A stretch of 64,000 nucleotides of DNA, taken from positions 384,001-448,000 of the forward strand of contig CAVYNY010000022.1 in the NCBI GenBank assembly GCA_963769935.1, given 5' to 3'. Below are positions 4,138 through 55,889 of this stretch, one piece after another; position 1 is the first letter of the stretch, and every line of letters starts with the position of its first letter. The notes under the pieces are model-generated. The model was not told where the DNA came from. It ran no database searches and saw nothing but the letters and a program-made list of their open reading frames with translations. Source of the DNA: an uncultured delta proteobacterium. GTDB lineage: Bacteria; Desulfobacterota; Desulfobacteria; Desulfobacterales; JAFDCJ01. A program made the position numbers and the translations under genes.

Positions 4138-4262
4138 TTCAATATTGCTCCTTGCTTTTCATTTTTTCAGCAATCGAGGTTTTACGCATCTCCATCCGCC
4201 GAAATAAAAAAGGGGATTATAAATTAATCCCCATTAATTTTCCAGCGGTTTTTACGATTGTT

Positions 4263-6210
4263 TTAGTAATTATCGTCGGGCGGGCTGCTGTCCATTAGAA
4301 CACCCTTCAAGCGTTCGATCTCTTTGGCTACCGTTTTTTCAATTACATCGTAAATGATTTTTTCTATCCGGCCGGAAAATTTTTCATTGATGACGCGTTC
4401 AATGGCCTTATCAATTTGTCCGGGTGAAAACGCGGCTAATTCTTCAGAATGCGGCTCTACCGCTAAATTTTCCTGGATGGCATTCGTGCCTGCAGGGAAA
4501 TCTTCAGGCGGCGATATCGCCTCTGGTTCATCGATTGGATCTTCTGATAAAAATGCATCCAGTCGATCGACTTGTCGGGCGATTGCACCGGGATCAAAAT
4601 TAAAATCGAACGCCTCATCTTCCGAGTCCGGCACTGCAGATTGGGCCGCTAATTCAGGAGCCGGGGCATCTTCGGTATTCTCAGCTTCTTCTTTTGTCAA
4701 CCGCCATTCATCGAGCGCTGCATTGTTGAAATCAGTTTCGGCAGCCTCAGGTTCCGGCTTTTCATCATCATCATCATCATCATTCTTCTTCTTCTGATTC
4801 TTCACTGAAAAAGTCGTCGAGTTCGGTGTATTCGCTTTTTTCGTCCGATTCACCGATTCCTATGATAGGTTCCTCTGCGGTCTGCCGGTCCTCTTCTACC
4901 TCGATCAGCTCGAGAAAGTCATCTTCCTCTTCATCAACAGTATCCAAAATACCGGCCTGTTCCAACATTTTATCGCTATCGTTCGGATAATGCTGATCAA
5001 ATTCGGTAATTTCGACAATGTCATCTCCCGTTTCGGCGTCAAAATCCCATGAACCATCCAGGGGGATTACCTCATCGTCATCTTCCAGTTCGGTTGCGTC
5101 CTCAAGATCAACAAGCAAGCCATTATCATTTTCAAAGTCCAGAGGTTCGTCCAGAGATTCGTTGTCTTCCAGCGCCACGATTTGCTCATCTTCCTGCGGG
5201 TTGGCATCCAGGGCGAGGAGGTTGGCGTCATCATTTGGTTCAAATTCGAATTCTTCGGTCGGTTTGAAACGTTCTCTTGCGTCATCTGAACCTATCGACT
5301 GCTCCACGGTTCGGGCGATGATATCATCGCCGCTGTCGGTCTCTTCTCCAATCTTGGTGGGTTCACTATTCGCCTCATCCTCGTCTTCAAAATCAAGTTC
5401 AGTGAGGGCTGCCAGATCCGGCAAGTCCTCGATATCGTCATTTCCCAGTGCATCGGCGTCCAGCATGGCGATGGTTGGCGGCGTTCCGCCCGCGCCTTCA
5501 TTCACATCTGGGTTGTCATTGTGCCGGTGGGAGTCAAATTCCAAGTATTCCGCCGGTTCTTCGGTTTGATCGCGGCGGCCGGATCTATCAGTTTCACCCA
5601 GAACCATGCTGACAAAATCCGGTTGATCTTCGCTGCGTTCATCATCCAAGGCAATCAACTCGTCCCCGTCTTCATCCGTTTCATATTCAAGTTCAATTTC
5701 CTCTTCGAGGTCAAACAAATCCTCATCATCTTCGACACCTGCTGTGTCAGCGTCCGTTACTTCAGCCAAACTTTCGTCTACCGCATCCGGCTCATTATCC
5801 AGTATAATGACATCATCCTCCGAGGCTTTGAATTCGAATCCGTCATCTTTTTTGTAGGGTTCGTCTTCGTCGGATCCCAAAGAATCATTTATGGCCGATG
5901 CAATCAGCTCGTCCTCCCCCATGCCGGTTTCATCATCTGCAAACTGATCGTCCAGTTCTAAGATTACATCTTCTTTCAAGATACCGGGTTTTGAAGCTGC
6001 TTCCCAAACGGTGAAAGCCTCATTGTCATCATCACTGTCGATTTTATGAGCTTCATCGCTCAGGCCGTCGTTTAATTCTATTATGCCGTCATTCTCTTCA
6101 GTCTCAATAATGACCTCATCGGTGAGCTCGATTATGGCATCATCGTCCGATGAGTCGGTCTTGACCGAATTCTGCCGGGGATCTTTTTTATCGATCATAG
6201 TTGTCACCAA
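4263..6210 (-). CDS. Highly acidic disordered protein with helical C-terminus (PopZ/RomR-C-like); one gene split by an apparent 1-nt frameshift at ~4783
   Basis: ORF 4780..6210 and the part of ORF 4263..4853 after the junction share D/E-rich composition; removing one A from GAAGAAGAAGAATGATGAT fuses them into about 648 aa; directly upstream of valS. Confidence 0.7.
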
Positions 6211-6273
6211 TCGGTAAAAGGAAGGTTGTTCATAAGGTCGAAATGATTTTCAAATTATTATTATCTTTGGGAA

Positions 6274-6302
6274 AACTATCATATGGCTTGGTAAGTGTCA
6301 AG
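6274..6302 (-). promoter_or_regulatory. Sigma70-type promoter for the acidic protein-valS operon
   Basis: Minus strand TTGACA-N17-TAGTTT. Confidence 0.5.
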
Positions 6303-6431
6303 AAATATTAACTTATCAATCCGGTCGTTTCGGCGGGTGGCAGTGAACGAAATTCTGAACCTTGAACCTTTGAACTTATTTATTTCAAAAACCATTTGCA
6401 GGATTTGATGATCAGTTATAAGTAAACCGTC

Positions 6432-7196
6432 ATGAGACACTTTTACGTCGATCCGGCAGCCGTGACCAAACCCCTGGTTATACTTAAAGGTTCGGAAGCC
6501 CATCACATCAAAAACGTCTTGCGTTTGAAACGCGAGGACCCCATCAAGCTGATTGACGGAACCGGAAATGAATATGAGGCGGTTATCAAAGTCTTGGATA
6601 CCGAAAAAGTTGAGCTCGAAATCCGGCACGAGTTTCACCCCTCTGCAACTGCTGGTGCACGGATTTTGGTGGCCCAGGCCTTTTTAAAAGAAAAAAAGAT
6701 GGACGATCTGGTGCGCAAACTCAGCGAACTGGGCATGGCCGGTTGGGTCCCCTTTTTTTCGCAGCGCTCCATTGCCAGGCCGGCTAAAGACCGTCTGGTC
6801 GGCCGAACCAACAGATGGAAGCGAATTGCCGCCGAGGCTGTCAAACAATGCCGTCGCAGCGACCTGCTGCAAATTTATGAGGCACTCAGCTTCAAAGAGG
6901 TGCTGCAATTCAGCCAAACCTGTGATTTGAAAATTGTTTTCTGGGAAAATGAGACCGTTCCTCTGAACCGGGACCCGGGATCGAAAGGGCAGGTGCCCTT
7001 AAAAAAAATTATGCTGATGTTGGGACCCGAAGGTGGCTTTACCGAGCAGGAGATCGAATTGGCTCGGCAAGGTGGATTTGCAGTCGCCGCGCTGGGGCCC
7101 CGCATTTTGCGGGCTGAAACCGCCACCCTGGCCGCCTCGACTTTGATCCAATATCTGTATGGTGATATGGGGCTGGGGGGGGACCAGCCGGATTAG
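6432..7196 (+). CDS. rsmE: 16S rRNA (uracil1498-N3)-methyltransferase
   Basis: HHIKNVLRL, LGPEGGFT, LGPRILRAETA. Confidence 0.97.
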   Translation: MRHFYVDPAAVTKPLVILKGSEAHHIKNVLRLKREDPIKLIDGTGNEYEAVIKVLDTEKVELEIRHEFHPSATAGARILVAQAFLKEKKMDDLVRKLSELGMAGWVPFFSQRSIARPAKDRLVGRTNRWKRIAAEAVKQCRRSDLLQIYEALSFKEVLQFSQTCDLKIVFWENETVPLNRDPGSKGQVPLKKIMLMLGPEGGFTEQEIELARQGGFAVAALGPRILRAETATLAASTLIQYLYGDMGLGGDQPD

Positions 7197-7292
7197 AAAT
7201 TCCGTTTATCTGAGGGTACGATTAGATGTTTGGCAAAGTGATAATCCATGAAAATCCGTTTCCATTAATTAAGATTATGGATCAAAAATTTC

Positions 7293-7321
7293 TTGACAAA
7301 GAATCGGGGGTTTAATAGAAG
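7293..7321 (+). promoter_or_regulatory. Probable tRNA promoter
   Basis: TTGACA-N17-TAGAAG about 45 nt upstream of the tRNA. Confidence 0.5.
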
Positions 7322-7367
7322 AGAGCTTCTCAAAATTAAGACCATGTCTATAATTTGGTTTTAATAC

Positions 7368-7443
7368 GCCGAGGTAGCTCAGTCGGTAGAGCAGGGGACT
7401 GAAAATCCCCGTGTCGGCAGTTCGATTCTGTCCCTCGGCACCA
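7368..7443 (+). tRNA. tRNA-Phe (GAA)
   Basis: 76 nt, GCCGAGG/CCTCGGC acceptor stem, anticodon loop CTGAAAA, T-loop TTCGATT, encoded CCA. Confidence 0.98.
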
Positions 7444-7447
7444 TAAG

Positions 7448-7485
7448 AAAAAGGATATCAAGCTAATGTTTGATATCCTTTTTTT
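7448..7485 (+). terminator. Intrinsic terminator after tRNA-Phe
   Basis: AAAAAGGATATCAA...TTGATATCCTTTTTTT hairpin plus T run. Confidence 0.8.
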
Positions 7486-7655
7486 ATTTTGGAAACCAAA
7501 CCTTTCGATAGGCAGCTCCCTTTCTTGACAAATAATACCCTTAAATGTACCATAACGACTAGAAACAAATGATAAATTGTAGAATCAATTTTTTTGGCTA
7601 AATTTTCCAGTTACATCATTTACCCGGACGAAATGGCCCTCGAGATTTTCGACCA

Positions 7656-7961
7656 ATGAGTGAAGTGCGAATTAGTATACCAAAACATAAAATTGCTGAT
7701 TTTTGTAAACAAAATCAGGTCCGCAGATTATCTTTGTTTGGTTCGATACTTAGGGAAGACTTTGGGCCGGACAGTGATATTGATATCCTGGTGGAGTTCG
7801 AGCCCGGCACCCGGATGGGACTCATCCGGCTATCCGGATTGGAGATTGAGCTTGGTAAAATAATCGGACGCAAGGTCGATTTGAATACCCCTGGGTTGCT
7901 GAGTAAATATTTTCGCGACCAGATTCTTGCTGAGGCAGATGTGCAATATGACGCAGCATAA
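7656..7961 (+). CDS. Minimal nucleotidyltransferase (MntA-type antitoxin)
   Basis: FGS-x10-DID motif (FGSILREDFGPDSDIDILVEF), 101 aa, overlaps a HEPN gene; TTGACA-N17-TACCAT upstream. Confidence 0.9.
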   Translation: MSEVRISIPKHKIADFCKQNQVRRLSLFGSILREDFGPDSDIDILVEFEPGTRMGLIRLSGLEIELGKIIGRKVDLNTPGLLSKYFRDQILAEADVQYDAA

Positions 7962-8298
7962 TGACATGATAAGGCTTCAACATATGCTCGATCATGCAAA
8001 GGAAGCAATATAACTGATTGCCGGCAAAGATAAGGCGGAACTTCAGCGCGACCGGGTTTTAGAGCTTGCCCTGATCCGACTGATTGAGATTGTGGGGGAG
8101 GCATGTGCGAAAGTCAGTTCTTCGACTCAACTAAAATACCCTTCGATACCTTGGCCGCAGATCATTGGCATGCGCAACCGGTTAATTCATGGGTATGACT
8201 CCGTTGATTTGGATGTTTTGTGGGACACCATCGAAGTCGATTTACCGCCTCTTGTTGATGTCCTTGATAAAATTATTGGTCAAAACGGCGAAGAATAA
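7948..8298 (+). pseudogene. HepT/DUF86-type HEPN ribonuclease toxin with in-frame stop
   Basis: ATG 7948 is in frame with IPWPQIIGMRNRLIHGY (R-x4-H); TAA at 8011-8013 (codon 22). Confidence 0.85.
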
Positions 8299-8375
8299 AT
8301 ATACATTGGCCGTTTTATAAGTCGGATCGCCAAGCATATTCAGCGTTAATGATGCTGAAATAATAATCTGGTAAA

Positions 8376-9305
8376 TCAGCTCTCCGCTAATCTCTTCAAC
8401 GAATACATCCCATCTAACCCCTTGATCGGTTTGGGTTTTTTCTCATGTTTTGAGAAAAATAGATGTTTAAACCGCTGGTAATTTTTAGCCACAAATACCT
8501 TTGATCCAATAATTCCCGAATCTGTAAAATAGCGGGTGCGGTATCTGAACCGATCGCTTTTGCTGAGTTGAAATTCTCTGCGGCGCTCCTTTGCCAGCAC
8601 CTTGTTTTCAATAACCTTCGCGTTGCCTTTCTCTGGCTGGTTCAGCGCTCCTGCCTCATAGACATACCGGCGGTATCTTCTGATGCGCTCTTTTTTGCTT
8701 TTGACATTAAATTCCTTTAAACCAAAATCTGTAGATAAAAAGCTGTCCCGGTTGGTGGTCTGGATATGGTAGCCCAGTGAATTCCAGCGGTATTGTTCCG
8801 GGAGCTCCACTATCCCGGCACGCAGGGGATTCAGATCGATATAGGCCAGGCAGTTGATCAGCGTCTCGCCGTTTTCAACGATCACGCTCTTAAAACGATC
8901 GCCCCAAAAGTAACCCCGCCGGTGGTGGCGCCGGTTGTAAAACCGGGCAAAGTTAACTTTGATTTCTCGCATAAATTCAGAAAGACTGGATAGTTTTTCC
9001 CGCAATGATGACACCAGGCCTTCTGCGAAAATGCGCTCATCCCCGTAAAAATCCACATAGCGATTTAGAATATCCTTGTCTGTAAACTTGTGCTCAGGAA
9101 ACATCCTCACCAAGATATGGAAATGATTTCCCATCAAACAGAATCCTAATATCTCGACTAAATAAAGGGTAGCGTAACGCCTGATCAGATCCAGCATAAA
9201 ATCTTTTTCGACGTTGCCCAATGGAAAGCCGTCCAGGGCGGTTCTGGACATAACGTGATAAACGGTGCTTTGATCATCAATGATCATTCGTTGCGTTCTG
9301 GGCAT
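8376..9305 (-). mobile_element. REP-associated tyrosine transposase (RAYT)/Y1 HUH transposase
   Basis: YHVMSR, MGNHFH (HUH), FWGDRFKS, YIDLNPLRAG, YRWNS; probable start MPRTQR at 9305. Confidence 0.85.
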
Positions 9306-9506
9306 GATATGCTCCTTTTCTTTTTTATTGATTGTGACTTCCATTGCACATGAATTGATATGTGTCAAGCATAAAGTACCTGTCCCCTATTCTCTTTCTG
9401 CCGGCCAAGTGGTTTCAGATGACCGGTCAATGGACAGAAAGATAAAGATAAGAAGTTGCTTTTCCGAAGCGGAAGAATCGGAAAAGGTTAATTGTGTGCC
9501 GGAATC

Positions 9507-9544
9507 AGCTTCCGACTTCGCTCTTCGAGCTACGACGGGACAAG
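9507..9544. repeat. REP-like element, identical 38-bp copy at 27480-27517, variant at ~9708-9745
   Basis: AGCTTCCGACTTCGCTCTTCGAGCTACGACGGGACAAG read at both positions. Confidence 0.85.
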
Positions 9545-9744
9545 GCAACTCAACATATTGAGGCGTCAATTAAACGGACCAATGACCATCCAGCTAACGG
9601 AAGCGGGCTTTGTTGTCAATATCGATTTTTGGAGGTGGAATTGAGAACTTGGGCAAATTCGGACATAGCTCACCGTTTTGCCCGCAGCTTGATTTTTTTA
9701 AAGGTAGGCTCCCGTCTTCGTTCTTCGAACTACGCCGCGACAAG

Positions 9745-10004
9745 GCAACCGGATAATCAGCATCGATGATGTAACGTGTCGCGCCGAAGCAAATGGACAG
9801 TAGGCGGACGTGTCACGCCAAAGAAGCAAATCCGCAGCTGGAACTTATCGTGACGAAAATAGCGAAGGCGGATCATCCGCGCCGGGCGATGAGGATTCGT
9901 CATATAAGATGAAGGATTCGGTCCGCCTCCGGCGGATTGGCTCGCGGAGGCGGTCTGTGTTTAACATCCCATAAGTCCAGGTGCTTGAGGATTTTTTTGA
10001 CGAG
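9745..10004 (-). pseudogene. 3' remnant of an IS91-like transposase interrupted by short palindromic insertions
   Basis: 9907-10004 aligns with 15582-15675 and encodes LVKKILKHLDLWDVKHRPPP. Confidence 0.8.
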
Positions 10005-10330
10005 AGGAATGTTCCGGAAGTGCTTTTTTACAAATGTTTCGGCACCCGGAATCCACCTCGTATTTATCACTTTCTCAAATACCAGCTCTGAATATTTCTG
10101 GGCATCCTCCTCTATTTTTCTTTCCGGGGATGGGTCGCCGATAATATTGTAATGGGCGTACTTGATCTTTTCTACCCGGCTGATGCCTCCGTGACGCTGG
10201 TGGTGGGCCACAATCTTCTCTACGATTTCTGGCCCGTATGGTTTGAATATTTCCCTGTACGCGTTGGTTATTGTTGCAGTCGAGTCGACGAGAACGCCGT
10301 CGAAATCAAAAAAAACATGCTGAGTTAGGT
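10005..10330 (-). pseudogene. Truncated HAD-family hydrolase fused to the IS91 remnant
   Basis: HAD motif I FFDFDGVLVDS and cap domain present; sequence switches to the transposase tail after NIPL, so later motifs are missing. Confidence 0.75.
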
Positions 10331-10477
10331 TTATACATGCTGTTTCATTTTCCTGCAGAGAGGTGACAAATTGCTTGACATCATGAAGCTGACAATACAT
10401 ATATGTGTGACAGGTAGGACGTATTACAACTCATATCTAATGTCAATATCAAATTCAACTCAACGGGATAATACCAC

Positions 10478-11230
10478 ATGAGACTAAAAACGAAACGTGC
10501 TTTAATCACCGGTGGAGCACAGGGAATCGGTTTGGCTATTGCGCAGAGATTCTGCAGGGAGGGTGCACAGGTCTGGCTTGCAGACATGAACCGGGAAAAG
10601 GGTATCGCTGCCGCGTCAGCACTGCAGGAGAATGGTGGCACGGCTGCCTTTGTATATCTCGACGTCAGCGACGATGCCAACTGGAATCAGGTGTGCGCTC
10701 AGATCGAAGAGGAAGCGGGCGGCATAGATATTCTGGTAAACAATGCCGGTATCAACATTCGTAAAGCGATCGAGGAGATGAGCGGAGAGGAGCTTGACCG
10801 CATGTACGCGGTCAACATCAAGGGACCGTTTCTCGGCATCAAGCATGTGCTGCCGATCATGAAGTCGATAGGCGGAGGATCCATTATCAATATGTCGTCC
10901 GTCTGCGGCCTTATCGGCCACCTTTACACGCCTGAGGCGTATACGACGGCGAAAGGGGCGTTGACCACCCTTACCAAGGCGGTAGCCTCCCGGTACGGAA
11001 AGTTCAATGTGCGCTGCAACTCCATCAATCCGAGCACTGCCGATACCCCGCTGGTGCAGGAGATGCTGAAGAATCCCGAGTGGAAGCAGGAGCGTCTGGG
11101 GGAGGTGCCGCTCGGCAGGATGGCAGGTCTTCATGACATTGCGGCGGCGGCACTCTACCTGGCCTCGGAAGACGGCAGTTTTATCAATGGCGTCGCACTG
11201 CCCGTCGACGGGGGCGTCACGGCTTATTGA
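10478..11230 (+). CDS. SDR-family NAD(P)-dependent oxidoreductase
   Basis: TGGAQGIG, NNAG, YTTAK, DGG. Confidence 0.95.
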   Translation: MRLKTKRALITGGAQGIGLAIAQRFCREGAQVWLADMNREKGIAAASALQENGGTAAFVYLDVSDDANWNQVCAQIEEEAGGIDILVNNAGINIRKAIEEMSGEELDRMYAVNIKGPFLGIKHVLPIMKSIGGGSIINMSSVCGLIGHLYTPEAYTTAKGALTTLTKAVASRYGKFNVRCNSINPSTADTPLVQEMLKNPEWKQERLGEVPLGRMAGLHDIAAAALYLASEDGSFINGVALPVDGGVTAY

Positions 11231-11306
11231 CCGCGAGCCTGCACACAGAAGATGGCGGTGAAGGACAGTGGTTGTTCAGGCAGCGGGACGAGCCGGGGAT
11301 GAGCAC

Positions 11307-12017
11307 GTGAATACCATTCCAATAAAAAATATAAAAAGCGAGAAGGTTCATGCCCAGATATATGAGCAGATAAAAACGCTTTTGCTGGACGGCCACTGGA
11401 AGGCCGGGGAGAAGATCCCCTCGGAAGCGGAGCTGTGCCGTATGACCGGCGTCAGCAGAGTATCGGTCAGGACAGCGCTCAAATCCCTCATCGCCCAGGG
11501 CTTTCTGGTCTCGCGTCAGGGGGAGGGCACCTTCGTGGTGGACGTCTCCGTCGACATGAACATGGAACTGCTGGTGCCGATAATCGGCCTGGACAAACGC
11601 AATATTCTCGAAGTCCTGCAGTATCGCAAAATTCTTGAAGTGGGAATCGTCCCCCTCATCTTCAAGAACCTTACCGAGAGCAATCTCGTGGATCTGGAGA
11701 GAAACCTGGTTGAGCTCGAGCAGACGCCGGAAGAAGAAATCGCCACAATTACCGAGCTGGATCTCGAGTTTCACCGCCTGCTCTGTCAGATCTCAGGAAA
11801 CTCCTTGATCATCAAAGTGAACAGGATCCTGGGAAATCTTTTCAGAAAATCAATGGAAGATGTGGTGATTGCGCTGGGCAACCAGACCGGAAGGAAGTAT
11901 CACAGAAGAATTTTTGCAGCCATAAGCGAGGGGGACCAGCAGAAAACAGCGGCGCTGGTAGAGGAGCATATCGAGAATACCATAGAGAGCATTGAACGGG
12001 CGAAACAAAAAAAATAA
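11307..12017 (+). CDS. GntR/FadR-family transcriptional regulator
   Basis: IPSEAELCRMTGVSRVSVRTAL...RQGEGTFV wHTH and FCD (DLEFH, SGN); GTG 11307 preferred, 11268 possible. Confidence 0.93.
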   Translation: MNTIPIKNIKSEKVHAQIYEQIKTLLLDGHWKAGEKIPSEAELCRMTGVSRVSVRTALKSLIAQGFLVSRQGEGTFVVDVSVDMNMELLVPIIGLDKRNILEVLQYRKILEVGIVPLIFKNLTESNLVDLERNLVELEQTPEEEIATITELDLEFHRLLCQISGNSLIIKVNRILGNLFRKSMEDVVIALGNQTGRKYHRRIFAAISEGDQQKTAALVEEHIENTIESIERAKQKK

Positions 12018-12079
12018 GCCGTGGCGGGCGTTTCGATCACGGATAAAAACCAACAACAAACCAGAGGTGAGAAGAGAAA

Positions 12080-12718
12080 ATGGACGAGTCAAAAATGATA
12101 GAAGAGCTGATCACATACAGTAAAATCCTCTATGAACGCAAACTGATTCACGCCACCGGCGGCAACACCAGCGTGCGTGACGGTGATGTCGTCTGGATCA
12201 GCCAGACAGGTGCAAGGCTCGGCGAACTGAAGGAAAGCGAGGTCGTAAAAGTCGACCTCAACGGTACGGTGCTCGGCGGCAGCGCCCCCTCCAAGGAAAT
12301 GGGAATGCATCTGGCCATGTATCGGGCCAGGAAGGAGGCACGAGCCGCAATCCATGTCCATCCTACCTTTTCCATTGCCCTGTCGACGCTGATAAGCGAA
12401 GAGACAAAAGATGCCGTGCCGCCGTATACCGCAGCCTTTTATGTACGGGCGGGAAAAGTGCCGATGATCCCGTATCACGCCTCGGGCTCTCATTCCCTCC
12501 ACGTCGCGGTGGAAGCGCTTGCGCCGAAATACCACGCTCTGCTGCTGCGCCAGCATGGCCTGCTCGTTTCCGGAAAGGATATGGCCGATACGCTCGGCAT
12601 TGTCGAGGAGATCGAACAGTGCTGCCAGGTGGCCGTTGCCGTCGGCAAGACGGGAGAGTATCTCAAGGAATCGGAGCGGGCGGCAATTGATGAGGCAATG
12701 GGTAGAACCTGGGAATAA
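12080..12718 (+). CDS. Class II aldolase/adducin-family protein (OtnC-like decarboxylase or aldolase)
   Basis: GGNTS, PSKEMGMH, IHVHP, LLRQHG metal-binding motifs. Confidence 0.9.
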   Translation: MDESKMIEELITYSKILYERKLIHATGGNTSVRDGDVVWISQTGARLGELKESEVVKVDLNGTVLGGSAPSKEMGMHLAMYRARKEARAAIHVHPTFSIALSTLISEETKDAVPPYTAAFYVRAGKVPMIPYHASGSHSLHVAVEALAPKYHALLLRQHGLLVSGKDMADTLGIVEEIEQCCQVAVAVGKTGEYLKESERAAIDEAMGRTWE

Positions 12719-12739
12719 TTTTTCATGTGAAGGTACACT

Positions 12740-14098
12740 ATGAATCCACTATTGATGGCTTTTTACGGAGATGATTTTACCGGGTCCGCCGATGCCATGG
12801 AGGCGCTGACCATAAATGGCGTCAGAACCGCCCTGTTCCTCGGTCACCCAACCCAGGAGAGACTCAACAAAAGCCTGGCGGATCTGCAGGCGGTGGGTAT
12901 TTCCGGCGTCAGCCGGACGATGACGCCAAAACAGATGGATGATGAACTGCCGGATCAGCTGGCGCTGCTCAACAGCCTCAACCCGCGGCTGCTCCACTAC
13001 AAGGTGTGCGCCACGTTTGATTCTTCTGCGGCAATAGGCTCTCTCGGACATGCCGCCGATATTGCCTTTACCGTCATGAATCCCGATTACGGGGTTATTG
13101 TCCAGGGGGTTCCCCTGCTTGGTCGCTACATCGTCTTTGGCAATCACTTCACGGTATATGGCGACGAACGGTACCGGCTTGACCGGCATCCGGTGATGAG
13201 CAAGCACCCGATCACGCCGATGAGCGAGGGCGATCTGAGGGTACATTTTGCCACCATGTCGAAGAAAACGGTAAAGCTTATCGATCTGCTTCATCTCGGT
13301 GAATCCTACGAGGCGCTTTCTGATCGGTTCGACCGCTATGCGAAGGAAAACGACATTATTCTCTTTGATACCCTGGATGACAACCATCTCCTGCAGATTG
13401 GCAGGCTGCTGCATGACAAGTCTGCCAACGGCAGTATCTTCGCCATCGGTTCCTCCGGTTTTGAATATGCCATGGCCACCTACTGGCGTAAAAAGGGAAT
13501 TGTCGACAAACCCAAGGATTTTCCATCCATCGGGCCGGTTGAGCAGCTGATCGTCATGTCCGGCAGTGCGGCGGAAAACACAGCCGAGCAGATCAGATAT
13601 GCCGTTTCGCACGGGTTCGAGGGGATCACCTTGAACACCGATCTTCTCGTAGATGACCAGACGGCGGCAGACGAGAGAAACCGGGTCATCAGCAAGGGGC
13701 TTGAATTTCTGAGAAATTTCAAGAATATACTGATCTCCGCAACAATAGGTCCTGATGACCCGATCATCAAAAAAACGAGAGACAGAATCAGGGAACTTGG
13801 CATTGATGCCAGTGAAACCGGGAAAATCATCGCCAAACAGCAGGGCCTTATCCTTCGGGCGCTGTTATCGGAAACCGGTCTTGGCAGGATCTGTGTTGCC
13901 GGTGGGGACACCTGCAGTTATTCGCTGCGCCAACTGGATATCCACTCGCTGGAATTGTTGATGCCGATTGCTCCCGCAGCGCCGCTGTGTCTCGCTTTTT
14001 CCGACAACCCGTCGTTTGACAGGCTGCAGGTTGCCTCCAAAGGCGGGCAGATTGGTGCGGTTGACTATTTCATACAGGTATTGGAGGGCAGGAGATGA
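12740..14098 (+). CDS. Four-carbon acid sugar kinase family (DUF1537), OiaK-like
   Basis: YGDDFTGSADA, HYKVCATFDSS, RLDRHPVMSKHPITPM, AGGDT, KGGQIG. Confidence 0.9.
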   Translation: MNPLLMAFYGDDFTGSADAMEALTINGVRTALFLGHPTQERLNKSLADLQAVGISGVSRTMTPKQMDDELPDQLALLNSLNPRLLHYKVCATFDSSAAIGSLGHAADIAFTVMNPDYGVIVQGVPLLGRYIVFGNHFTVYGDERYRLDRHPVMSKHPITPMSEGDLRVHFATMSKKTVKLIDLLHLGESYEALSDRFDRYAKENDIILFDTLDDNHLLQIGRLLHDKSANGSIFAIGSSGFEYAMATYWRKKGIVDKPKDFPSIGPVEQLIVMSGSAAENTAEQIRYAVSHGFEGITLNTDLLVDDQTAADERNRVISKGLEFLRNFKNILISATIGPDDPIIKKTRDRIRELGIDASETGKIIAKQQGLILRALLSETGLGRICVAGGDTCSYSLRQLDIHSLELLMPIAPAAPLCLAFSDNPSFDRLQVASKGGQIGAVDYFIQVLEGRR

Positions 14099-15138
14099 CA
14101 AAAACCATGAAGGCCCTGGTACTCGAAGAATACAACAAACTCGTCTACAAGGATATGCCGGTTCCGGGTATCAGCGAAACCGAGGTGCTGATCGAGGTGA
14201 AGGCCTGCGGTATCTGCGGCAGCGATGTTCACGGCATGGACGGGAGCAGCGGCAGGAGACATACCCCGCTGATCATGGGGCATGAGGCCTCAGGTATTAT
14301 TGTTGCCCGAGGAGAGCAGGTGAGCTCTTTTTCTGAGGGTGACCGGGTTACGTTTGATTCCACCATCTATTGCGGGAAATGTTTCTACTGCCGGAAGGGA
14401 CTGATCAACCTCTGCGATAACCGTAGGGTGCTCGGCGTTTCCCCGAAGGAATACCGCCAGCATGGAGCCTTCGCCCAGTATGTGGTTGTACCGGAACATA
14501 TCCTCTACCGCTTGCCGGATGGGCTGTCCTTCGAACAGGCGGCGATGGTAGAGCCGGTTTCAATCGCCTTCCATGCGGTCAATCTTACCCCGATTTCCCT
14601 CAACGACAGTGTCGTTGTGATCGGTGCCGGCATGGTCGGGCTCTTTGTCGTGCAGGCCTTGCGGGCAGCTGGGTGCGGAACCATAATTGCCGTTGATATT
14701 GAACAGAGCAAGCTTGATACGGCCCTGAAGCTCGGTGCCGACCATGGTCTGCTGGCCGGAGCGGTCGATGTCCCGGAAGCAGTCAGAGGCCTGACTGAAA
14801 ATCATGGAGCGGCGCTGGCGGTAGAGGTTGTCGGCAATACTGCCGCTGTCAATACGGCGATCTCCTCTCTGCGTAAAGGCGGCTCCCTCACCATCATCGG
14901 CAATCTTTCGCCAACAGTGGAGTTCCCGCTGCAGGAAGTGGTTACCAGGCAGATCAGCGTTAACGGTTCATGTTCATCCTGCGGTGAGTATCCCGCCTGC
15001 CTTGACCTGATTGCCCGCGGGGTGATCAATGTTGACGAGATGATCAGCAAGGTGGCGCCGCTGGCCGAGGGTGCAGACTGGTTCCGGCGCCTGTATAACC
15101 AGGAGAAGGGGCTGATGAAGGTGATTCTGCAGCCGTAG
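14095..15138 (+). CDS. Zn-dependent polyol/sugar dehydrogenase (MDR family)
   Basis: CGICGSD, GHE, C-x2-C-x2-C-x7-C, GAGMVG. Confidence 0.93.
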   Translation: MTKTMKALVLEEYNKLVYKDMPVPGISETEVLIEVKACGICGSDVHGMDGSSGRRHTPLIMGHEASGIIVARGEQVSSFSEGDRVTFDSTIYCGKCFYCRKGLINLCDNRRVLGVSPKEYRQHGAFAQYVVVPEHILYRLPDGLSFEQAAMVEPVSIAFHAVNLTPISLNDSVVVIGAGMVGLFVVQALRAAGCGTIIAVDIEQSKLDTALKLGADHGLLAGAVDVPEAVRGLTENHGAALAVEVVGNTAAVNTAISSLRKGGSLTIIGNLSPTVEFPLQEVVTRQISVNGSCSSCGEYPACLDLIARGVINVDEMISKVAPLAEGADWFRRLYNQEKGLMKVILQP

Positions 15139-15573
15139 GGTTTCTCCTCATATCTCGAAAAAACCGGCCGGACCGCAGCCAGGAGCCATTCCGGCACAGT
15201 CCGGCCGGTATCCTCTGCTCAACACGATTGTTCTCCGCCGCCGCAGCACGGTCAAACGACCAGACAGGACAGATGCCGCCCCATCTGCGATGAGCCCTTT
15301 TTTCTTTTCGAATTGAATTGAATTTTCGTGTAAAATAAAATCATTATTCTTGTATTCGTGCTTTTCTCGGCGTGGCAGATTTTTGGATGGCGGCAGCGGT
15401 TGAGGTGAGCTGAGCGATATATCAGTGCAGAGATGGGCGGAAAATGCTCGGAGAATCCCGGAATATCTCTCTAGTGTTTCAGATCATAGCCCGTTCGCCT
15501 ACAGCTTCGCTGTTGAGTTCCTTGTCGGAAGAAGGTTCTGCCGGCAGGCGGAGCTGGAAACGGTCGACAAATC

Positions 15574-16898
15574 TTACACACAGATGAAGGATTCGGTGGG
15601 CGGGCTATTGGTTCGCGGGGGCGGTCTGTGTTTAACATCCCATAAGTCCAGGTGCGTGAGGATTTTTTTGACGAGCTGCTCTTCCTCGATAAATGAAATT
15701 ATTTTCATAGACCCCAGGCACTTAGAACACACCAATGGATTAATCCCGCCGGGGCGGGATAGATTTTCTGTATCAAACGAGCCCAGCTTTTACGGAATTC
15801 TTTAGATGAAAGCTCAGATTCAATCAACGCCGGGACTACATCATCGGTGCTGGCTTTTTTGCGTAAGCCGCGCGATTTATTGGAATAAAATCCATAATAT
15901 CTGACCATTTGCTCGCCACGGTTCGGGATATGGGCGGTCAGCTGTGCGAGCCAATCCAGAGCATCAAACGTTTTACTGGTCTTCCCATCCTTTGACTCAT
16001 AAATGACTTTTGCCACGCCGTTGGCTGATTCACCAGCCGCAATATATGTCATGCGCTCTTGGGAAAAGGAGGCTCGAATAATATAGCGCGCCAGGTTTTC
16101 CAGGCCGTCTTCATTGTGCGGCCAAATGGCTTTACCACAGTACACGTGGAATCCGCTGTGACGCCAATTCATCATATTCTCGATGATGACATCCGTGATT
16201 TTGCCTTCGGCTTTGAGCATTTTGAACACTTCATAGCGAAACAGCTTTTCAAGCTCACCGGTATCAGGTGATGGGCATACCATGAAGGCGTTATCGTTGT
16301 AAAAGCAGCCATCGGTGGCCAGCACATGTAAATGCGGATGAAAATTTTGAAAATCACCAAACGACTGAACGGCGACTGCAGCACCGGCTTTGGCATCATC
16401 ATAGGCTATCGCTTGGGTTAAATACAAGTTCAGCACTTTCCAGGCGCAACGGCTCAGTTTTGTGAGCAGTTTACGGTCAAACATGAAATAGATCCGCAAT
16501 CTTTTTGGAATGCTGAATACCCATTGCCGGTGCGGCACATATTTTAGCACTTCTGTGCATAACCATTCGCCGAATTCCACCACCCGTTTCTGATGGCATG
16601 ATGGACAAAAATGGCGACGCTTGCATGAAAATGCCAACAAATATTCATGGCCGCAATCTTCACATTTAACGCGCGCAAAGCCAAAATGTAAATCCCCACA
16701 ATCCATATAGCGCTGAATGACATCCGTCACATAAGGCCGCCAAAAGCCAAAGCGGCGCTGATAACGATCATCCCAGACAGCTTCCAACTGTTCAAAATGA
16801 TCTTCGACGCAGCGGTAATAGGCGCTTGCCTTGGGATTGCGCGGTTGATAAACATCAAAATCAATTGTAGTAGGGCACGCGTTTAACATATTGACCAA
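15574..16898 (-). mobile_element. IS91/ISCR-like rolling-circle transposase with frameshifted C-terminus
   Basis: Zn domain CEDCGH...FSCKRRHFCPSC, HUH FHPHLH, LARYIIR, VRYYGFYSN; tail NPLVCSKC...KILTHLDLW continues in another frame to TAA at 15574. Confidence 0.88.
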
Positions 16899-17206
16899 TC
16901 CAACACGGAAAATACGAGTACCCTACACGATCAAAATGTATGCGTAAATGTAAATATCTATGTATATATAAATCGATATTTTTTAAAAGTCTTTTTATTC
17001 GAATCATTCATTTTCAACCAATACGATAATCTGTAAAATTCCCAAGAATTTACCGTGCAATAATGGAACAATCTCTTTGCTGAGATTTAGAGCGCCTGAG
17101 CTGAATATATGGAAAATTGATGCGATCAGGTTTTTGGGGAAGAATGCAGATAGGAACTTAGAGGAAACAAAACTGTGCCAAAATCGATCGCTTTTGTTGA
17201 GTCACA

Positions 17207-18559
17207 TTATTTTCTGCCTTGCTGCCGGAATATAGCTTCCGTAATCGCATCTAAAAATTCAGGAATGTCCCAAGGCGCCCTAGCTGTTACTATTCTACCC
17301 TCTATAACAGCTGACCAATCGCCATTATATGTTCCACCCATGATAGGAACAATATCTATAACTTGGGTAATACCAGCAGCCTTCTTGCCTTCAAGAATGC
17401 CGGCAGCTGCAGAAGCTATAGTTCCGTGACAAATAGTTGCAACGATCTTACCAGCGCTATAAGCTTCTTTTAGAAATTTTTCATTTCCAGTCGAAACTAT
17501 GTTCCACGGACCAAATCCACCAGGTACCACAATGACATCAAAATCCAAAGTACGAATGTCTTTTAATGCACAAATCTTATATCTGCTTGTAGGAACTTCT
17601 TGTATAGGAATAGTAGTACCAACACTACCCATAACTATATCTAATCCTATGCCTCCAGTGCGGGCTCTTTGTGCAGTAGGAAAAGTACCGAAGGTTACCT
17701 CAGCGCCTCGATACAATAATTCCAGGAAGGGAACACACATTTCAATATCTTCATAATCTTCGCCGGCAATAAATAATACTCTTGTTCCTTTTAAGCTATC
17801 CTTTCTTGGATCCGTAAACTTTGGGTCGACCATTTTAGCTAATTCTCTAACGAATTCAGGAGTATCAACAGTATTTTGAGCGGTAATTAGTTTGCCGTCA
17901 ACAACAACAGCTGCATCAGTATAAGTACCTATCCTTTCAAGCATCATTTTAACAACTCTGCTACCAGTGGATTTTTTGCCATTCATGATGCCGACACGGA
18001 TATACGGCATGGTACCTTCACCAATAGCACCCATGATAGCACCGCTATCAGAACAAGTTTTTACAAAATCCCAAACTGCAGATTCTGACAGCATGATATC
18101 GGCGGAATGATTACCTAAAACGACAAGTACATCGTAATCCTTAGGATCAGCATCTTTCATGCTCTTATACGTCCCACCCTTATCAAAAGCTATGGTTTGG
18201 ATAGGATCTACATGTAATCCCCATTGACCTTCAACGCCTTTGGTAATTACTGCAGGTCTTGTATTTTTCCAAAAAACCCAGTCAACCAAGATCCATTCGA
18301 TAGTTCCACCAAATTCGCCTACATAATGCAATAATTCGTAAGCTTGATAATCACTAAATTCAGCAGCAATGAGTAAACCTACTTTTTTTCCTACCAATGG
18401 ACCTACTGGTTTTCTTTGCCCACCATATTTTCCTTCTCTTCCGTCCCATATTGTTGCAGTACCATCTTGAAAAACTCTAACGCCTGTTTTCTTTACAGCT
18501 TCCATAAAGCTTGTTGACTTTGGTAATGTTTTATTCATAAATCCTTTTTTCATAACCAA
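17207..18559 (-). CDS. Tandem DJ-1/PfpI-domain protein
   Basis: Two repeats with VVDGKLITA / VIEGRIVTA; second domain has YEDIE, VPGG and ICHG. Confidence 0.85.
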   Translation of the reverse strand: MVMKKGFMNKTLPKSTSFMEAVKKTGVRVFQDGTATIWDGREGKYGGQRKPVGPLVGKKVGLLIAAEFSDYQAYELLHYVGEFGGTIEWILVDWVFWKNTRPAVITKGVEGQWGLHVDPIQTIAFDKGGTYKSMKDADPKDYDVLVVLGNHSADIMLSESAVWDFVKTCSDSGAIMGAIGEGTMPYIRVGIMNGKKSTGSRVVKMMLERIGTYTDAAVVVDGKLITAQNTVDTPEFVRELAKMVDPKFTDPRKDSLKGTRVLFIAGEDYEDIEMCVPFLELLYRGAEVTFGTFPTAQRARTGGIGLDIVMGSVGTTIPIQEVPTSRYKICALKDIRTLDFDVIVVPGGFGPWNIVSTGNEKFLKEAYSAGKIVATICHGTIASAAAGILEGKKAAGITQVIDIVPIMGGTYNGDWSAVIEGRIVTARAPWDIPEFLDAITEAIFRQQGRK

Positions 18560-18609
18560 TCCTCAATCCATGCTGAACAAATTAATTTTATCCAAAGCCC
18601 GCAAAAAGC

Positions 18610-19665
18610 TCACACATTTCCCCGGCTTCTACGCACGCGGATCGCGTCGACCAGCACAGCAAAGAAGATCATCAAGCCTCCCACCATGTCTACGTAGAAC
18701 GCCGAGATGTTGGTGATTTGCAGCGCAACTTTGACGACCGTGAGCAAGAGCACACCTCCGAGCATTCCGATAACTCGGCCTCGACCACCATAAAGTGAGA
18801 CGCCACCGATTATCGGTGCGGCGATTGCATAGAGCAAAAGATCCCTGCCAACGGTCCTGTTGATGCCGTTGAGCCACGACGTGACTAGAAAGCCAGCCAA
18901 GGCTGCCATAGTTGCGGAAACGATGAAGGCCTGAATCTTCGTCCTACTTACGTTGATACCAGCCGTGAACGCGGCGCGTGGGTTACCTCCCACGGCGTAG
19001 ATGCGGCGGCCCCATGTTGTGCGACTCAGCACGACTGCGGCGATGGCATAGACGAGCAGGAAAGCAGCGGGCATGATCGGCCATCCGCCGACACGCTCAT
19101 TCCCGATAAGGAGATAGCCGGGGTTCTCAACAACCTTTGTGGCACCTCTCGTCACTGCTAACAGCGCTCCCTGGAGTACAAGGCCCATGGCAAGCGTCTC
19201 AATCAGTGAGTTCATTCCTATCTTGGTTACGCAGAACCCGTTGAACAGTCCGATACCTGCGCCGGTCGCCAGTACCGCTAGTAAAGCAATTGCGGCAGGC
19301 ATATTGCCGTTTGGCTCAACCAGTATGACGCCTACCCATCCGGCGAACCCAAGGACGCCGATAACCGACAGGTCGATATCTCCGATGAGCAGGGTGTGCG
19401 AGACCCCTAAAACAATCACCCCGAGCACGGTGGCCTGGATCAAAATGTTCTTTAAATTCGCGATAGTGAGGAAGAAGTCATTCGCGTAACCTGCCCCGAA
19501 AGAGAAAAGGATGATGAGCAGCCAAACAACGTTGTCCAAGAGCCGATCGACGATCAAACGGCTCTGCAGCCCGCTTATGAAACGAGCCGGCCAACCTCGG
19601 GTCTCGATAGGGATGGCAAGTTTCACTGGCTCTTCTTTTTTCACTGCTGTCTCTTGTTGCCTCAT
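18610..19665 (-). CDS. Monosaccharide ABC transporter permease
   Basis: GDIDLSV, GRRIYAVGGN..AA..AGI, IGGVSLYGGRG. Confidence 0.95.
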   Translation of the reverse strand: MRQQETAVKKEEPVKLAIPIETRGWPARFISGLQSRLIVDRLLDNVVWLLIILFSFGAGYANDFFLTIANLKNILIQATVLGVIVLGVSHTLLIGDIDLSVIGVLGFAGWVGVILVEPNGNMPAAIALLAVLATGAGIGLFNGFCVTKIGMNSLIETLAMGLVLQGALLAVTRGATKVVENPGYLLIGNERVGGWPIMPAAFLLVYAIAAVVLSRTTWGRRIYAVGGNPRAAFTAGINVSRTKIQAFIVSATMAALAGFLVTSWLNGINRTVGRDLLLYAIAAPIIGGVSLYGGRGRVIGMLGGVLLLTVVKVALQITNISAFYVDMVGGLMIFFAVLVDAIRVRRSRGNV

Positions 19666-19708
19666 CAGCTACCTCATTGCGCCCTTTCGCGTTACGGAGG
19701 GCAGATCC

Positions 19709-21295
19709 TTATGCACCAAGTGCCCTCAGCACAGCCTCGATATTGAGTGAATTCCCACTGAGTTCCTCGACGATGCGCCCACCACGGAACACCAGCGCCC
19801 GGTCGGCCATCTGGACAAGCTCTTCCGTGTCGTAGGCCAGCAGCAGAACCCCGAGCCCCTCGTGAGTGAGCTGATCGATGGTTTGGTGAACCTCCTGCTT
19901 GGCACCCACATCAATCCCGAGCGTCGGCTCGTCAAGGATTAGCACCTTCGGCCCTGCATTCACCAGACGAGCAAGAAGCACCTTTTGCTGGTTCCCACCT
20001 GAGAGCTGGTCAACCTGCTGGCCCGAATGAGTCACGGTCATCTGAAAACGGTCGCGCATCTTTTTGAATGTTTGCTCCATTGCTGGAATGTCAATGAAAC
20101 CCCATTTTCGGGTTGGCCATCGACCGGCGTGCAGGTTGAACCGAACTGACAGTTCGCCAAACAATCCGTCACCTTTGCGATCCCGCGGTAGATAGACGAT
20201 GCCGTGGTCTACCACTCCGGTCACGGTGTCTGCCTCCACCGATGAACCCTCGAGAAGAACCCGGCCCCCATCCCTCGGCTCAAGACCCCCAAGTGCTCGC
20301 GCCAGCTCACTCGCGCCCGAGCCAGGGAGACCGACGAGGCCGAGGATCTCGCCTCGGCCAAGGACAAACGACACGGGTTCACCCCCTCGAGCGCGGAAAT
20401 CTTCGAGCTCGAGGAGTGGCTCCGGGTGCTGCTCCACCTTGCGGCCGAACGATACTACGTCGGTACCTGTGACCAGTTCGGCGAGCTGGGACGGTGGCAC
20501 GGCCCCCGGATCGTTGCCGCGCGCAACGACTTTGCCGTCTCGCAGGACCGTGTACTCGTTGCAAATCTCGCGGAGCTCGCGGATGTAATGCGAGATGAAA
20601 ATGAAGGTCTGTCCCTCCTCGCGGAGTCTTTTGATCCACGCGAAAAAGGATCGCCTCTCCGCCTCCGTGAGGGATGTCGTCGGCTCGTCGAGCATGGCCA
20701 GTTGACCCTCGTCCGCGAGGGTCTTCACAATGCCCAACATACGTTGGTCGGGGATAGACAATGAGCCGGCCAGCGCGTCGACTGGAATGCCGACATAGTG
20801 CGACTCGAGAATCTCGTGCGCCCTTAGACGGACATCCTGCCAGTCGATTAGTCCCTTGCCTCGTGAGAGATTCGACATCATTAGGTTTTCGGCGACTGAC
20901 AGGTCCGGAACGATCTCCGAATCTTGGGTCAGCAGTCGAATGCCCATTTTTCGTCGCTCGACGAGCGCCGTGCCGGTCACATCGCGGTTCTGGAAGAAGA
21001 TCCTTCCACTTGAAGGCGTGACCGCGCCCGCGATCATCTTCACAAGCGTAGACTTTCCGGCACCGTTTTTTCCAACAAGACCGTGAATCGCCCCACGTGA
21101 CACGGCGAAGTCGCTGGGCAGCAATGCCTCAACGCCTCCGTACGTCTTCGCCAGGCCCTCAGCATGGACGATGTGAGTATCGCCATTTTCGAGCGGGGGC
21201 AGCGATGCCTGCCCCCGTTGTTCGGCGTGTGACGAATCCCCGAGCGCTGACACTATGCCTTCAACCCCCAATCTTTTGTCACGACATTGCCCCAC
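19709..21295 (-). CDS. Monosaccharide ABC transporter ATP-binding protein (two ABC domains); start uncertain
   Basis: GKNGAGKS, LDEPT twice, LSGGNQQK. Confidence 0.95.
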   Translation of the reverse strand: MGQCRDKRLGVEGIVSALGDSSHAEQRGQASLPPLENGDTHIVHAEGLAKTYGGVEALLPSDFAVSRGAIHGLVGKNGAGKSTLVKMIAGAVTPSSGRIFFQNRDVTGTALVERRKMGIRLLTQDSEIVPDLSVAENLMMSNLSRGKGLIDWQDVRLRAHEILESHYVGIPVDALAGSLSIPDQRMLGIVKTLADEGQLAMLDEPTTSLTEAERRSFFAWIKRLREEGQTFIFISHYIRELREICNEYTVLRDGKVVARGNDPGAVPPSQLAELVTGTDVVSFGRKVEQHPEPLLELEDFRARGGEPVSFVLGRGEILGLVGLPGSGASELARALGGLEPRDGGRVLLEGSSVEADTVTGVVDHGIVYLPRDRKGDGLFGELSVRFNLHAGRWPTRKWGFIDIPAMEQTFKKMRDRFQMTVTHSGQQVDQLSGGNQQKVLLARLVNAGPKVLILDEPTLGIDVGAKQEVHQTIDQLTHEGLGVLLLAYDTEELVQMADRALVFRGGRIVEELSGNSLNIEAVLRALGA

Positions 21296-22386: not shown

Positions 22387-22477
22387 CCTTGCCGTCCTTT
22401 CTAGGGCATCATAGCCCTAATTGATTGGAGTTATCCCCACCCGACATACAGGGATCGCCGGCCAATCCGGCAAAATA

Positions 22478-22512
22478 TTTTATATATTGAAACGGCATCT
22501 CAATATTTGAGA
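22478..22512. promoter_or_regulatory. Candidate IclR operator(s) upstream of the SBP gene
   Basis: Palindrome TCTCAA-TAT-TTGAGA (22498-22512) preceded by the similar TTTTATATATTGAAA. Confidence 0.45.
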
Positions 22513-22709
22513 CGTATTATGTTTTTATCTGCTTGTCAAGTACGGATATTCTTTTTGGACAACTCCTTCGATGAGAGCGGCAGGTCTTCCCTTTGTCAAA
22601 TGATAATTAGGAAAAATGAGCATAGATCGCCTGGGCTGCTTTCCACAAGCGCCGTTTGGAATGACCCCAGTCCACAAGGCTGTTGTAAAGTTGCTTGTCA
22701 GAAACGAAA

Positions 22710-22763
22710 AAGCCTCTATCAGTGAGGTTTCGTTGCCAAGTGAAACCTCACTGATAGAGGCTT
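22710..22763 (-). terminator. Perfect 22-bp inverted repeat downstream of the IclR gene
   Basis: AAGCCTCTATCAGTGAGGTTTC-N10-GAAACCTCACTGATAGAGGCTT, T-rich tail on the minus strand. Confidence 0.65.
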
Positions 22764-22803
22764 AAGATGAAGCGTAACACAAGAGGGGAATATCAGGACA
22801 TAC

Positions 22804-54887: not shown

Positions 54888-54891
54888 TGCG

Positions 54892-55521: not shown

Positions 55522-55588
55522 CAGGGTTCCGTCATTTAAGGAGATAAATGACTAATTTTGCGAAAATTACCCGCTTAACAATAATCAT

Positions 55589-55806: not shown

Positions 55807-55889
55807 ATTGTATTGTAAAACTTTACAAATGCAGCTGGTTTAGAATTTACTTTGACGTTACCCTGGGGAACGTAGGAGTAGTCTTCGCC

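Follow-up and report, generated by a model that had tools for sequence, protein, structure and literature searches.

A predicted aldonate cassette in an uncultured Desulfobacterota genome: an OiaK-like DUF1537 kinase with a dedicated SDR and, usually, an OtnC-like class II aldolase-fold protein

Kinases of the DUF1537 family take part in several described routes of sugar-acid breakdown. The four-step tetronate pathway is given as LtnD or DenD, OtnI, OtnK and OtnC, the D-apionate routes as ApnO, OiaK and OiaX/OiaT (via PMC13753588), the 2-oxo-tetronate route as 2OtnK-2OtnC (via PMC12540250) and the L-threonate route as Ltn3D, OtnK and OtnC (PMC12994016). According to the last paper, Ltn3D, a short-chain dehydrogenase/reductase (SDR), together with OtnK and OtnC converts L-threonate to dihydroxyacetone phosphate (DHAP) and D-gluconate to D-ribulose 5-phosphate in vitro. 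Here, we analyze a cassette of five genes in a 64,000-nucleotide stretch of DNA (the window, C22:384001-448000) from the genome of an uncultured Desulfobacterota bacterium (G000; assembly of 8.0 Mb, 96.7% complete, 5.4% contaminated). The cassette encodes an SDR, a FadR/GntR-family regulator, a class II aldolase-fold protein, a DUF1537 kinase and a Zn-dependent dehydrogenase. On balance, we favor the reading that the SDR, the OiaK-like kinase and the OtnC-like protein form a route of C3 oxidation, phosphorylation and decarboxylation of an aldonate. The chemistry is a recombination of known steps, the series of an SDR, a DUF1537 kinase and a class II decarboxylase being already published (PMC12994016). 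No publication on this particular gene set was found, in a search that did not reach the primary network studies, which may already show the cluster.

The five open reading frames (ORFs) lie on the plus strand with successive gaps of 37, 62, 21 and −4 bases, in agreement with a sequence-only reading of this DNA made earlier, which had described them as co-oriented and closely spaced. All five are full length, and their catalytic residues and the promoter block are intact. Since the same grouping is found on dozens of independent contigs, it is not due to chance.

The kinase belongs to the DUF1537 family, as it has PF07005 and PF17042 domains. The motifs that had led the sequence-only reading to call it OiaK-like are present at residues 9, 86 and 146. 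NCBIfam models gave 417.8 bits for OiaK (cut-off 700), 169.6 for OtnK (350) and 64.4 for DtnK (450). The cut-off of the OiaK model, NF042436, says little about membership, because the kinases of complete OiaX-OiaK-ApnO operons miss it too: kinases of OiaX/RLP-ApnO operons (RLP, RuBisCO-like protein) scored 477–519 bits, and in a Rhizobium OiaX-OiaK-ApnO operon, the kinase scored 477, below the cut-off, and OiaX 780, above it. True OtnK proteins of genomes that carry the cassette scored 597–607 bits with the OtnK model, NF043035. The window kinase is 24–27% identical to OtnK and 40–47% identical to OiaK-like proteins. Its predicted structure (pLDDT 82, weak at residues 123–164) had 3DQQ, 5DMH and 1YZY as the top Foldseek matches (E-values 1e-25 to 1e-23).

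Kinase trees were built with FastTree (109 rows after dropping 19 near-duplicates) and IQ-TREE (34 rows), with three OtnK rows. The closest relatives of the window kinase formed a single clade (support 1.0 and 100, respectively) nested among RLP-linked OiaK-like kinases, and the OtnK rows stood apart. The place of this clade among OiaK-like kinases is likely. Window-type kinases share with the OiaK branch the motifs YGDDFTGS, HYKVC.TFDS, RLDRHP, GGD and KGGQ, and differ from it at two residues of the OiaK-conserved GS-T-D and K.C-S-TFDS patterns. Thr and Ser stand at positions 17 and 91 in OiaK-like and OtnK proteins, and the close clade has Ala at both: Ala17 was found in 119 and Ala91 in 117 of the 120 closest homologues (3 unparsed), and at position 91, 150 distant representatives had 136 Ser and no Ala (13 unparsed). 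Going by the annotation of DtnK, both positions may lie within the acid-binding site. By these sequence criteria, the kinase is OiaK-like, in a well-supported subfamily of its own, rather than OtnK or DtnK, as had been proposed. Members of the subfamily are in part annotated automatically as 3-oxoisoapionate kinase; the genome context says that apionate catabolism is not their role.

To define this context, we collected loci of related kinases, namely, 8 loci from genomes, the best 80 of 550 metagenome matches, one locus from a further genome of the same phylum (G044) and 8 plasmid loci (hand-picked from 318 hits). The close set consisted of 65 loci with at least 60% kinase identity and the distant set of 32 loci at 40–47%; after merging near-identical copies, 49 close groups, one of them essentially the window's own strain, and 29 distant groups remained. 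Many of these contigs are short, and related loci cannot count as independent observations. Partners were scored by tblastn, since automatic gene calling picked antisense frames in GC-rich loci.

An SDR orthologue (at least 55% identity) was present in 38 of the 49 close groups, including all 28 with at least 2.5 kb of upstream DNA, and in none of the 29 distant ones. A class II aldolase-fold gene was found in 33/49 close groups (26 of the window type, 7 of an unrelated type with 30–34% identity) and in 21 of the 28 well-covered ones, compared with two distant groups, both haloarchaeal. RLP or ApnO genes showed the opposite distribution, 0/49 close versus 26/29 distant groups. The SDR, and not the aldolase, is the constant partner of the kinase. 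The genome-neighbourhood analysis suggested in the sequence-only reading returned an SDR and usually an aldolase, never RLP or ApnO, which bears out its claim of a kinase that goes with a class II aldolase fold and not with an RLP. No OtnI was seen at any close-clade locus.

The well-covered close groups comprised 21 with the aldolase, 4 with a FadR regulator fused to a URO-D-like domain, none with both and 3 with neither. The last three are L015, where the gene was lost by deletion, and the L050 group and L056, which are not deletions. The fused domain of 360 aa (L066:1362-3179, protein P0121; also L022, L058, L060, L062 and L063, none with an aldolase in view) scored 0.97 against Atlas clusters holding 18–27% URO-D members, had no Pfam match and gave a single-sequence model with pLDDT 46. 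A 29% homologue is encoded in G000 at C13:398434. The domain is a candidate substitute for the last step.

Two haloarchaeal loci of the distant set (L019:7212-9380 and L105:7155-9380) have OiaK-like kinases with Thr17 and Ser91, a FucA-like class II aldolase, Gfo/Idh/MocA dehydrogenases and ThuA; they are an independent kinase-aldolase pairing without RLP. On a Rhizobium plasmid (L113:4037-7233), an SDR and a DUF1537 kinase (30% identity) stand with a protein of the beta-keto acid cleavage family, another partner of a 3-oxo-acid kinase.

The best NCBIfam match of the aldolase-fold protein was OtnC (163.1 bits, below the NF043034 cut-off of 250; true OtnC proteins scored 294–335), and the best PDB matches were 6VOQ and 6VOP. 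In a 22-row tree, it was sister to OtnC (support 0.997), with which it shares ~30% identity and an insertion after the His pair. Glu73 and the metal triad His92, His94 and His159 align with FucA and YgbL, and the phosphate-site motifs are kept; the roles of these residues are presumed from FucA. The tyrosine of the PFTPY segment of FucA and OtnC, which we take to be the catalytic acid, is replaced by Ala-Ala in 10/10 aligned window-type proteins. According to PMC12540250, OtnC-type Aldolase_II enzymes pair with 3-oxo acids and F_bP_aldolase enzymes with 2-oxo acids. The window protein has the Aldolase_II domain, unlike 2OtnC, which has the F_bP_aldolase domain; that three-step route and the one proposed here share the absence of an isomerase.

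The SDR has an intact catalytic triad (Ser141/Tyr155/Lys159) and Asp36 and, by the Asp36 rule given in PMC12994016, its sequence is of the NAD type. Arg95, His148 and Arg206 are kept in 95% or more of 82 aligned rows and would fit an anionic substrate. Neither the SDR nor the Zn-dehydrogenase matched a specific NCBIfam family, and PDB searches with the two gave no substrate clue. The SDR was considered as an Ltn3D orthologue and rejected: it is 29% identical to the Ltn3D orthologue of L056 (which matches 9X6I, E-value 4e-83) and is without Arg33, Arg34, Arg143 and Asn181. No further SDR orthologue was found in 400 sampled genomes of the class of one carrier genome, G408. In 9/49 close groups, the cassette has an additional companion, an atypical SDR without the usual TGxxxGxG start (L016:7528-8391 and L044:10061-10870).

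Searches of whole genomes were made for the enzymes of the known routes. ApnO was sought with protein queries, as a PF16896 profile search missed even its control. A Rhizobium ApnO-type query, which found 24 loci elsewhere, gave no tblastn hit at E-value 1e-3 in G000, and ApnO was not found in 9 other carrier genomes (a set with no positive-control genome), apart from one 28% hit at E-value 8e-4. Together with the 49 close loci, this agrees with the absence of ApnO stated in the sequence-only reading. One RLP of G000 is on another contig (C13), 30% identical to OiaX and with no DUF1537 gene adjoining; no set of RLP and ApnO genes was found elsewhere in the genome that would complete an apionate route. 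We also considered the C13 RLP as the absent decarboxylase and rejected it: an aldolase and UPF0261 proteins of its own surround it, its identity to OiaX is low, and in 5 relatives, 66% orthologues stand in a likewise separate context. This locus (L006:5666-9507) encodes the RLP, whose C-terminal part lies in another frame, a class II aldolase, UPF0261 proteins, a lactonase-like protein, a Zn-dehydrogenase and a sugar ABC system. The distant RLP type (29–32% to OiaX) is shared by G000 and 5/9 relatives, and next to most copies, a class II aldolase gene is in view. In G408, a further RLP stands apart and is accompanied by an OiaK-like kinase of its own.

Canonical OtnK-OtnC pairs are encoded elsewhere in 5/5 carrier genomes tested (four kinases and two decarboxylases were checked and all were above cut-off; the fifth genome was examined by tblastn only), and OtnI in 4/5, G000 being the one without. 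Because of these coexisting pairs, the cassette is probably not the ordinary tetronate pathway. It resembles that pathway in having a DUF1537 kinase with an OtnC-related class II protein as its neighbour, sometimes with LtnD or DenD near; it differs in the lack of OtnI in clade loci. G000 has no orthologue of LtnD, DenD, OtnI or OtnK (best matches 23–28%), which makes the SDR the obvious entry enzyme there. Its two other DUF1537 genes are DtnK-like and adjoin PdxA, and a 44% match to the Ltn3D orthologue is on another contig.

In the route that we propose, the SDR would oxidize an aldonate at C3 with NAD, in place of ApnO or of LtnD plus OtnI; the kinase would phosphorylate the 3-oxo acid with ATP; and the OtnC-like protein would catalyze metal-dependent decarboxylation of the beta-keto acid to a ketose phosphate and CO2. 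In the simplest case of a four-carbon acid, the products would be DHAP and CO2. FadR is likely the operon repressor. The same order of an SDR, a DUF1537 kinase and an Aldolase_II-fold decarboxylase, isomerase-free and amid C4–C6 sugar-acid genes, is seen in the L-threonate route (PMC12994016); however, all three cassette proteins are of other subfamilies (SDR 29%, NAD-type; kinase 24–27%; decarboxylase ~30%). With the D-apionate routes, the cassette shares the OiaK branch of the kinase, and it differs from them in the absence of ApnO and RLP in 49/49 loci, in the two Ala residues and in its dedicated SDR. Of the route envisaged in the sequence-only reading, oxidation, phosphorylation and decarboxylation of a sugar acid stand as the best reading; for a branched acid or a polyol, there is no positive evidence, and the neighbours point to linear aldonates. 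Such a small trio could fill a gap in the catabolism of tetronates or aldonates, in this case among uncultured Desulfobacterota and Proteobacteria of sediments.

Clues to the substrate come from the neighbours. LtnD is found in 4/49 close groups, one a remnant, and was above cut-off at 3/3 tested loci; L056 has DenD above cut-off and the Ltn3D orthologue. Other recurring aldonate neighbours are IdnO/IdnD-like proteins, GntK, Gnd, LarA-type epimerases/isomerases and IlvD-type dehydratases. The recurring transporters are TRAP carboxylate systems. A conserved TRAP binding protein, present in 11/49 groups, has as its nearest structures 7BBR, a sugar-acid binder reported in complex with 2-keto-3-deoxygluconate, and a set described as pantoate- or erythronate-bound; PMC11668362 warns that such ligands co-purified. 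No ketose-phosphate isomerase or epimerase recurs among annotated neighbours, which fits a product that is already in central metabolism. That OtnK-OtnC coexists with the cassette, that two kinase residues are altered and that no downstream isomerase recurs would together suggest, tentatively, a four-carbon aldonate or close analogue outside the canonical OtnK-OtnC set, for example, the 2S tetronates L-erythronate or D-threonate. L056 itself (424-19355) is a sugar-acid funnel island with Gnd, a LarA-type epimerase, DenD, the Ltn3D orthologue, Gfo/Idh/MocA, two Zn-dehydrogenases, the cassette's SDR and kinase, IlvD, a 2-hydroxyacid dehydrogenase and an ABC system, and with no aldolase or OtnI.

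The cassette was brought into G000 by horizontal transfer. Over window positions 9998–15128, the DNA is 81% identical to a Desulfobulbaceae locus (L010), and no other part of the compared stretch shows such identity; the edges of this segment fall at direct repeats of an IS91-type transposase 3′ end; the divergent HAD gene is truncated; 0/22 congeners carry the kinase subfamily; and a sample of 400 genomes from the phylum contained a single further match, G044. It is thus an imported 5.1 kb segment bracketed by IS91 (IS, insertion sequence) and without its own transporter. No cultured carrier was found. In a 99% identical metagenome copy (L024), the IS is followed by sequence like that from window position 23948 onward, bypassing the sugar ABC module. 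A different OiaK-like kinase (31–40% identity) is present in 7/22 congeners, with an RLP in view at 6/7 loci fetched. At these loci (L150–L156), the kinase, 33–39% identical by locus, is accompanied by a divergent RLP (~29% to OiaX) in 6/7 and by a Zn-dehydrogenase in 4; in L151, PdxA is upstream of the kinase in place of RLP. Just left of the cassette, at window positions 8376–9368, is a gene for a REP-associated tyrosine transposase, with 42-nt repeats at 9508 and 9708. In a decayed cassette (L015:8028-10449), a 42-codon stub containing a stop is what is left of FadR, the aldolase gene is deleted, and the SDR and kinase are intact.

Several observations weigh against the aldonate C3-oxidation route. 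The last step is not uniform, since 3/28 well-covered groups are without the aldolase or its substitute and 7 groups have an unrelated aldolase. A tree joining the close clade with OtnK had a log-likelihood 28 lower and was not rejected by the approximately unbiased (AU) test (p = 0.06); because of this p-value and of long branches, the tree position is likely rather than proven. Loss of two hydroxyl side chains in the kinase, and of the FucA/OtnC tyrosine in the aldolase-fold protein, could mean other chemistry in either enzyme. The SDR is unlike Ltn3D in identity and key residues and may catalyze C2 oxidation, or reduction, rather than C3 oxidation, and LtnD near the cassette may belong to a dispersed canonical pathway. 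No cassette enzyme has a characterized relative above ~45% identity, and every reaction assigned here is a prediction.

The kinase and decarboxylase could instead be divergent OtnK/OtnC isoenzymes that use (2R)-3-oxo-tetronate derived from L-threonate or from D-erythronate. The SDR would then be an extra feeder, namely, a D-erythronate 3-dehydrogenase that supplies the missing counterpart to Ltn3D. The occurrence of LtnD, DenD and Ltn3D genes by the cassette, the sister position of the aldolase-fold protein to OtnC and the AU result would suit this, as would erythronate in related TRAP proteins and the promiscuity of OtnK and OtnC (PMC12994016). The canonical pair elsewhere in all five carriers tested, OtnI in four of them, and the closeness of the kinase to OiaK in identity and motifs make it rather improbable. 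In the bit scores and, subject to the AU result, in both best trees, the kinase does not cluster with OtnK of the known tetronate pathway; such clustering had been named in the sequence-only reading as contrary to it. Slightly less probable still is a C2-branched substrate (isoapionate, hamamelonate or 2-C-methyl-tetronate), for which OiaK-like specificity would be kept and the class II enzyme would replace the RLP OiaX; a direct C3 dehydrogenase would be needed, because a tertiary C2 cannot be oxidized. The kinase does nest among RLP/ApnO-linked OiaK-like proteins, the known OiaK substrate is a C2-branched 3-oxo-tetronate (PMC13753588), and the Thr/Ser-to-Ala changes could make room for a methyl group. 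However, ApnO was not found at the 49 close loci or, bar the one weak hit, in the 10 carrier genomes searched; the annotated neighbours include no recurring apiose dehydrogenase, lactonase or erythrulose-phosphate isomerase, and are linear aldonate genes.

We regard as very improbable a polyol or sugar aldol route, in which the SDR and Zn-dehydrogenase would produce a ketose, the kinase would turn it into a ketose 1-phosphate and the class II enzyme would cleave this to DHAP plus an aldehyde, the ABC module and dhaKLM being part of the system. The class II fold with its DHAP-type site intact, the sorbitol/ketose reductases among the PDB matches of the Zn-dehydrogenase and the haloarchaeal pairing with FucA-like aldolases are in its favor; yet characterized DUF1537 kinases are described as acting on acids, the aldolase-fold protein groups with OtnC and not with FucA and is without FucA Tyr113, the recurring transporters carry carboxylates, and the Zn-dehydrogenase, window-type ABC binding protein and DhaK are present in 9/31, 0/49 and 1/49 close groups. 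The copy in G000 could also be passenger DNA, an IS91-mobilized fragment without a transporter or downstream partners, which is compatible with the aldonate route. IS-end repeats that bracket the cassette and break the HAD gene, its absence from the congeners and L015 as proof that a cassette can decay speak for this, and the five full-length ORFs with intact catalytic residues and promoter block, and the 14 DctP-like matches and other aldonate genes of the genome, against it; we consider it unlikely. Equally unlikely, in our estimate, is that the loci represent an unrecognized pathway for a sugar acid to which no route has been assigned (L-erythronate, a deoxy or a C2-methyl tetronate), in which a new SDR 3-dehydrogenase would work with a kinase re-tuned from OiaK and with three interchangeable solutions for the last step, namely, the OtnC-like protein, the unrelated class II aldolase and the FadR-fused URO-D-like domain. 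If true, the last of these would be a new decarboxylase activity for that fold.

The other genes to which the sequence-only reading had assigned a part did not hold their place. The Zn-dehydrogenase, taken there as a core step, was found in 9 of 31 close groups with downstream DNA and is accessory to the cassette. The L-idonate pathway consists of IdnD, IdnO, IdnK and Gnd. The Zn-dehydrogenase of relatives is similarly often followed by an IdnO/KduD-like SDR and gluconokinase (GntK), in some also by Gnd; in the window, the protein is below the IdnD cut-off (147 versus 469 bits), and no such partners are present. Its 62% paralogue in G000 adjoins an IdnO/KduD-like SDR, a KdgK-like kinase, a UxaA-like gene and a LarA homologue. 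By virtue of these companions, the Zn-dehydrogenase is likely an aldonate 5-dehydrogenase of a neighbouring hexonate C5-oxidation module. The sugar ABC module (17.2–23.6 kb), proposed as the importer, and dhaKLM (53.9–58.4 kb), proposed for triose products, were rejected as partners on the neighbourhood counts of their binding protein and DhaK; the L024 copy does not continue into the former. The coordinates of the cassette and its borders are listed in Table 1, with the intergenic block interpreted, from its sequence, as likely divergent promoters and FadR operator.

Table 1. Features of the cassette and its borders (window positions).
Feature	Position	Strand	Remarks
SDR dehydrogenase, 250 aa	10478-11230	+	core gene, predicted aldonate 3-dehydrogenase
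FadR/GntR-family regulator	11268-12017	+	listed start GTG; true start probably slightly 3′ of it
Class II aldolase-fold protein, 212 aa	12080-12718	+	predicted 3-oxo-acid phosphate decarboxylase, closest to OtnC/YgbL
DUF1537 kinase, 452 aa	12740-14098	+	core gene, OiaK-like subfamily with Ala17 and Ala91
Zn-dependent dehydrogenase, 347 aa	14095-15138	+	accessory
Divergent HAD hydrolase remnant	10002-10338	-	~112 codons left; intact protein 217 aa in relatives
Conserved intergenic block	10375-10446		TTGACA, CGTATTACAACT, ATGTCAA; conserved in 7/7 aligned loci
Left copy of IS91-type transposase 3′ end	9907-10004		direct repeat of 15582-15675
IS91-family transposase (15705-16898) and its 3′ end	15582-16898	-	right cassette boundary

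The minus-strand region 17207–23583 of the window encodes an IclR regulator, a single-permease sugar ABC system and a two-domain DJ-1/PfpI protein (50% paralogue at C22:15199). Positions 53886–58424 contain dhaK, dhaL and a dhaM gene that also encodes fused HPr and enzyme I domains; two further dhaK paralogues are present in the genome.

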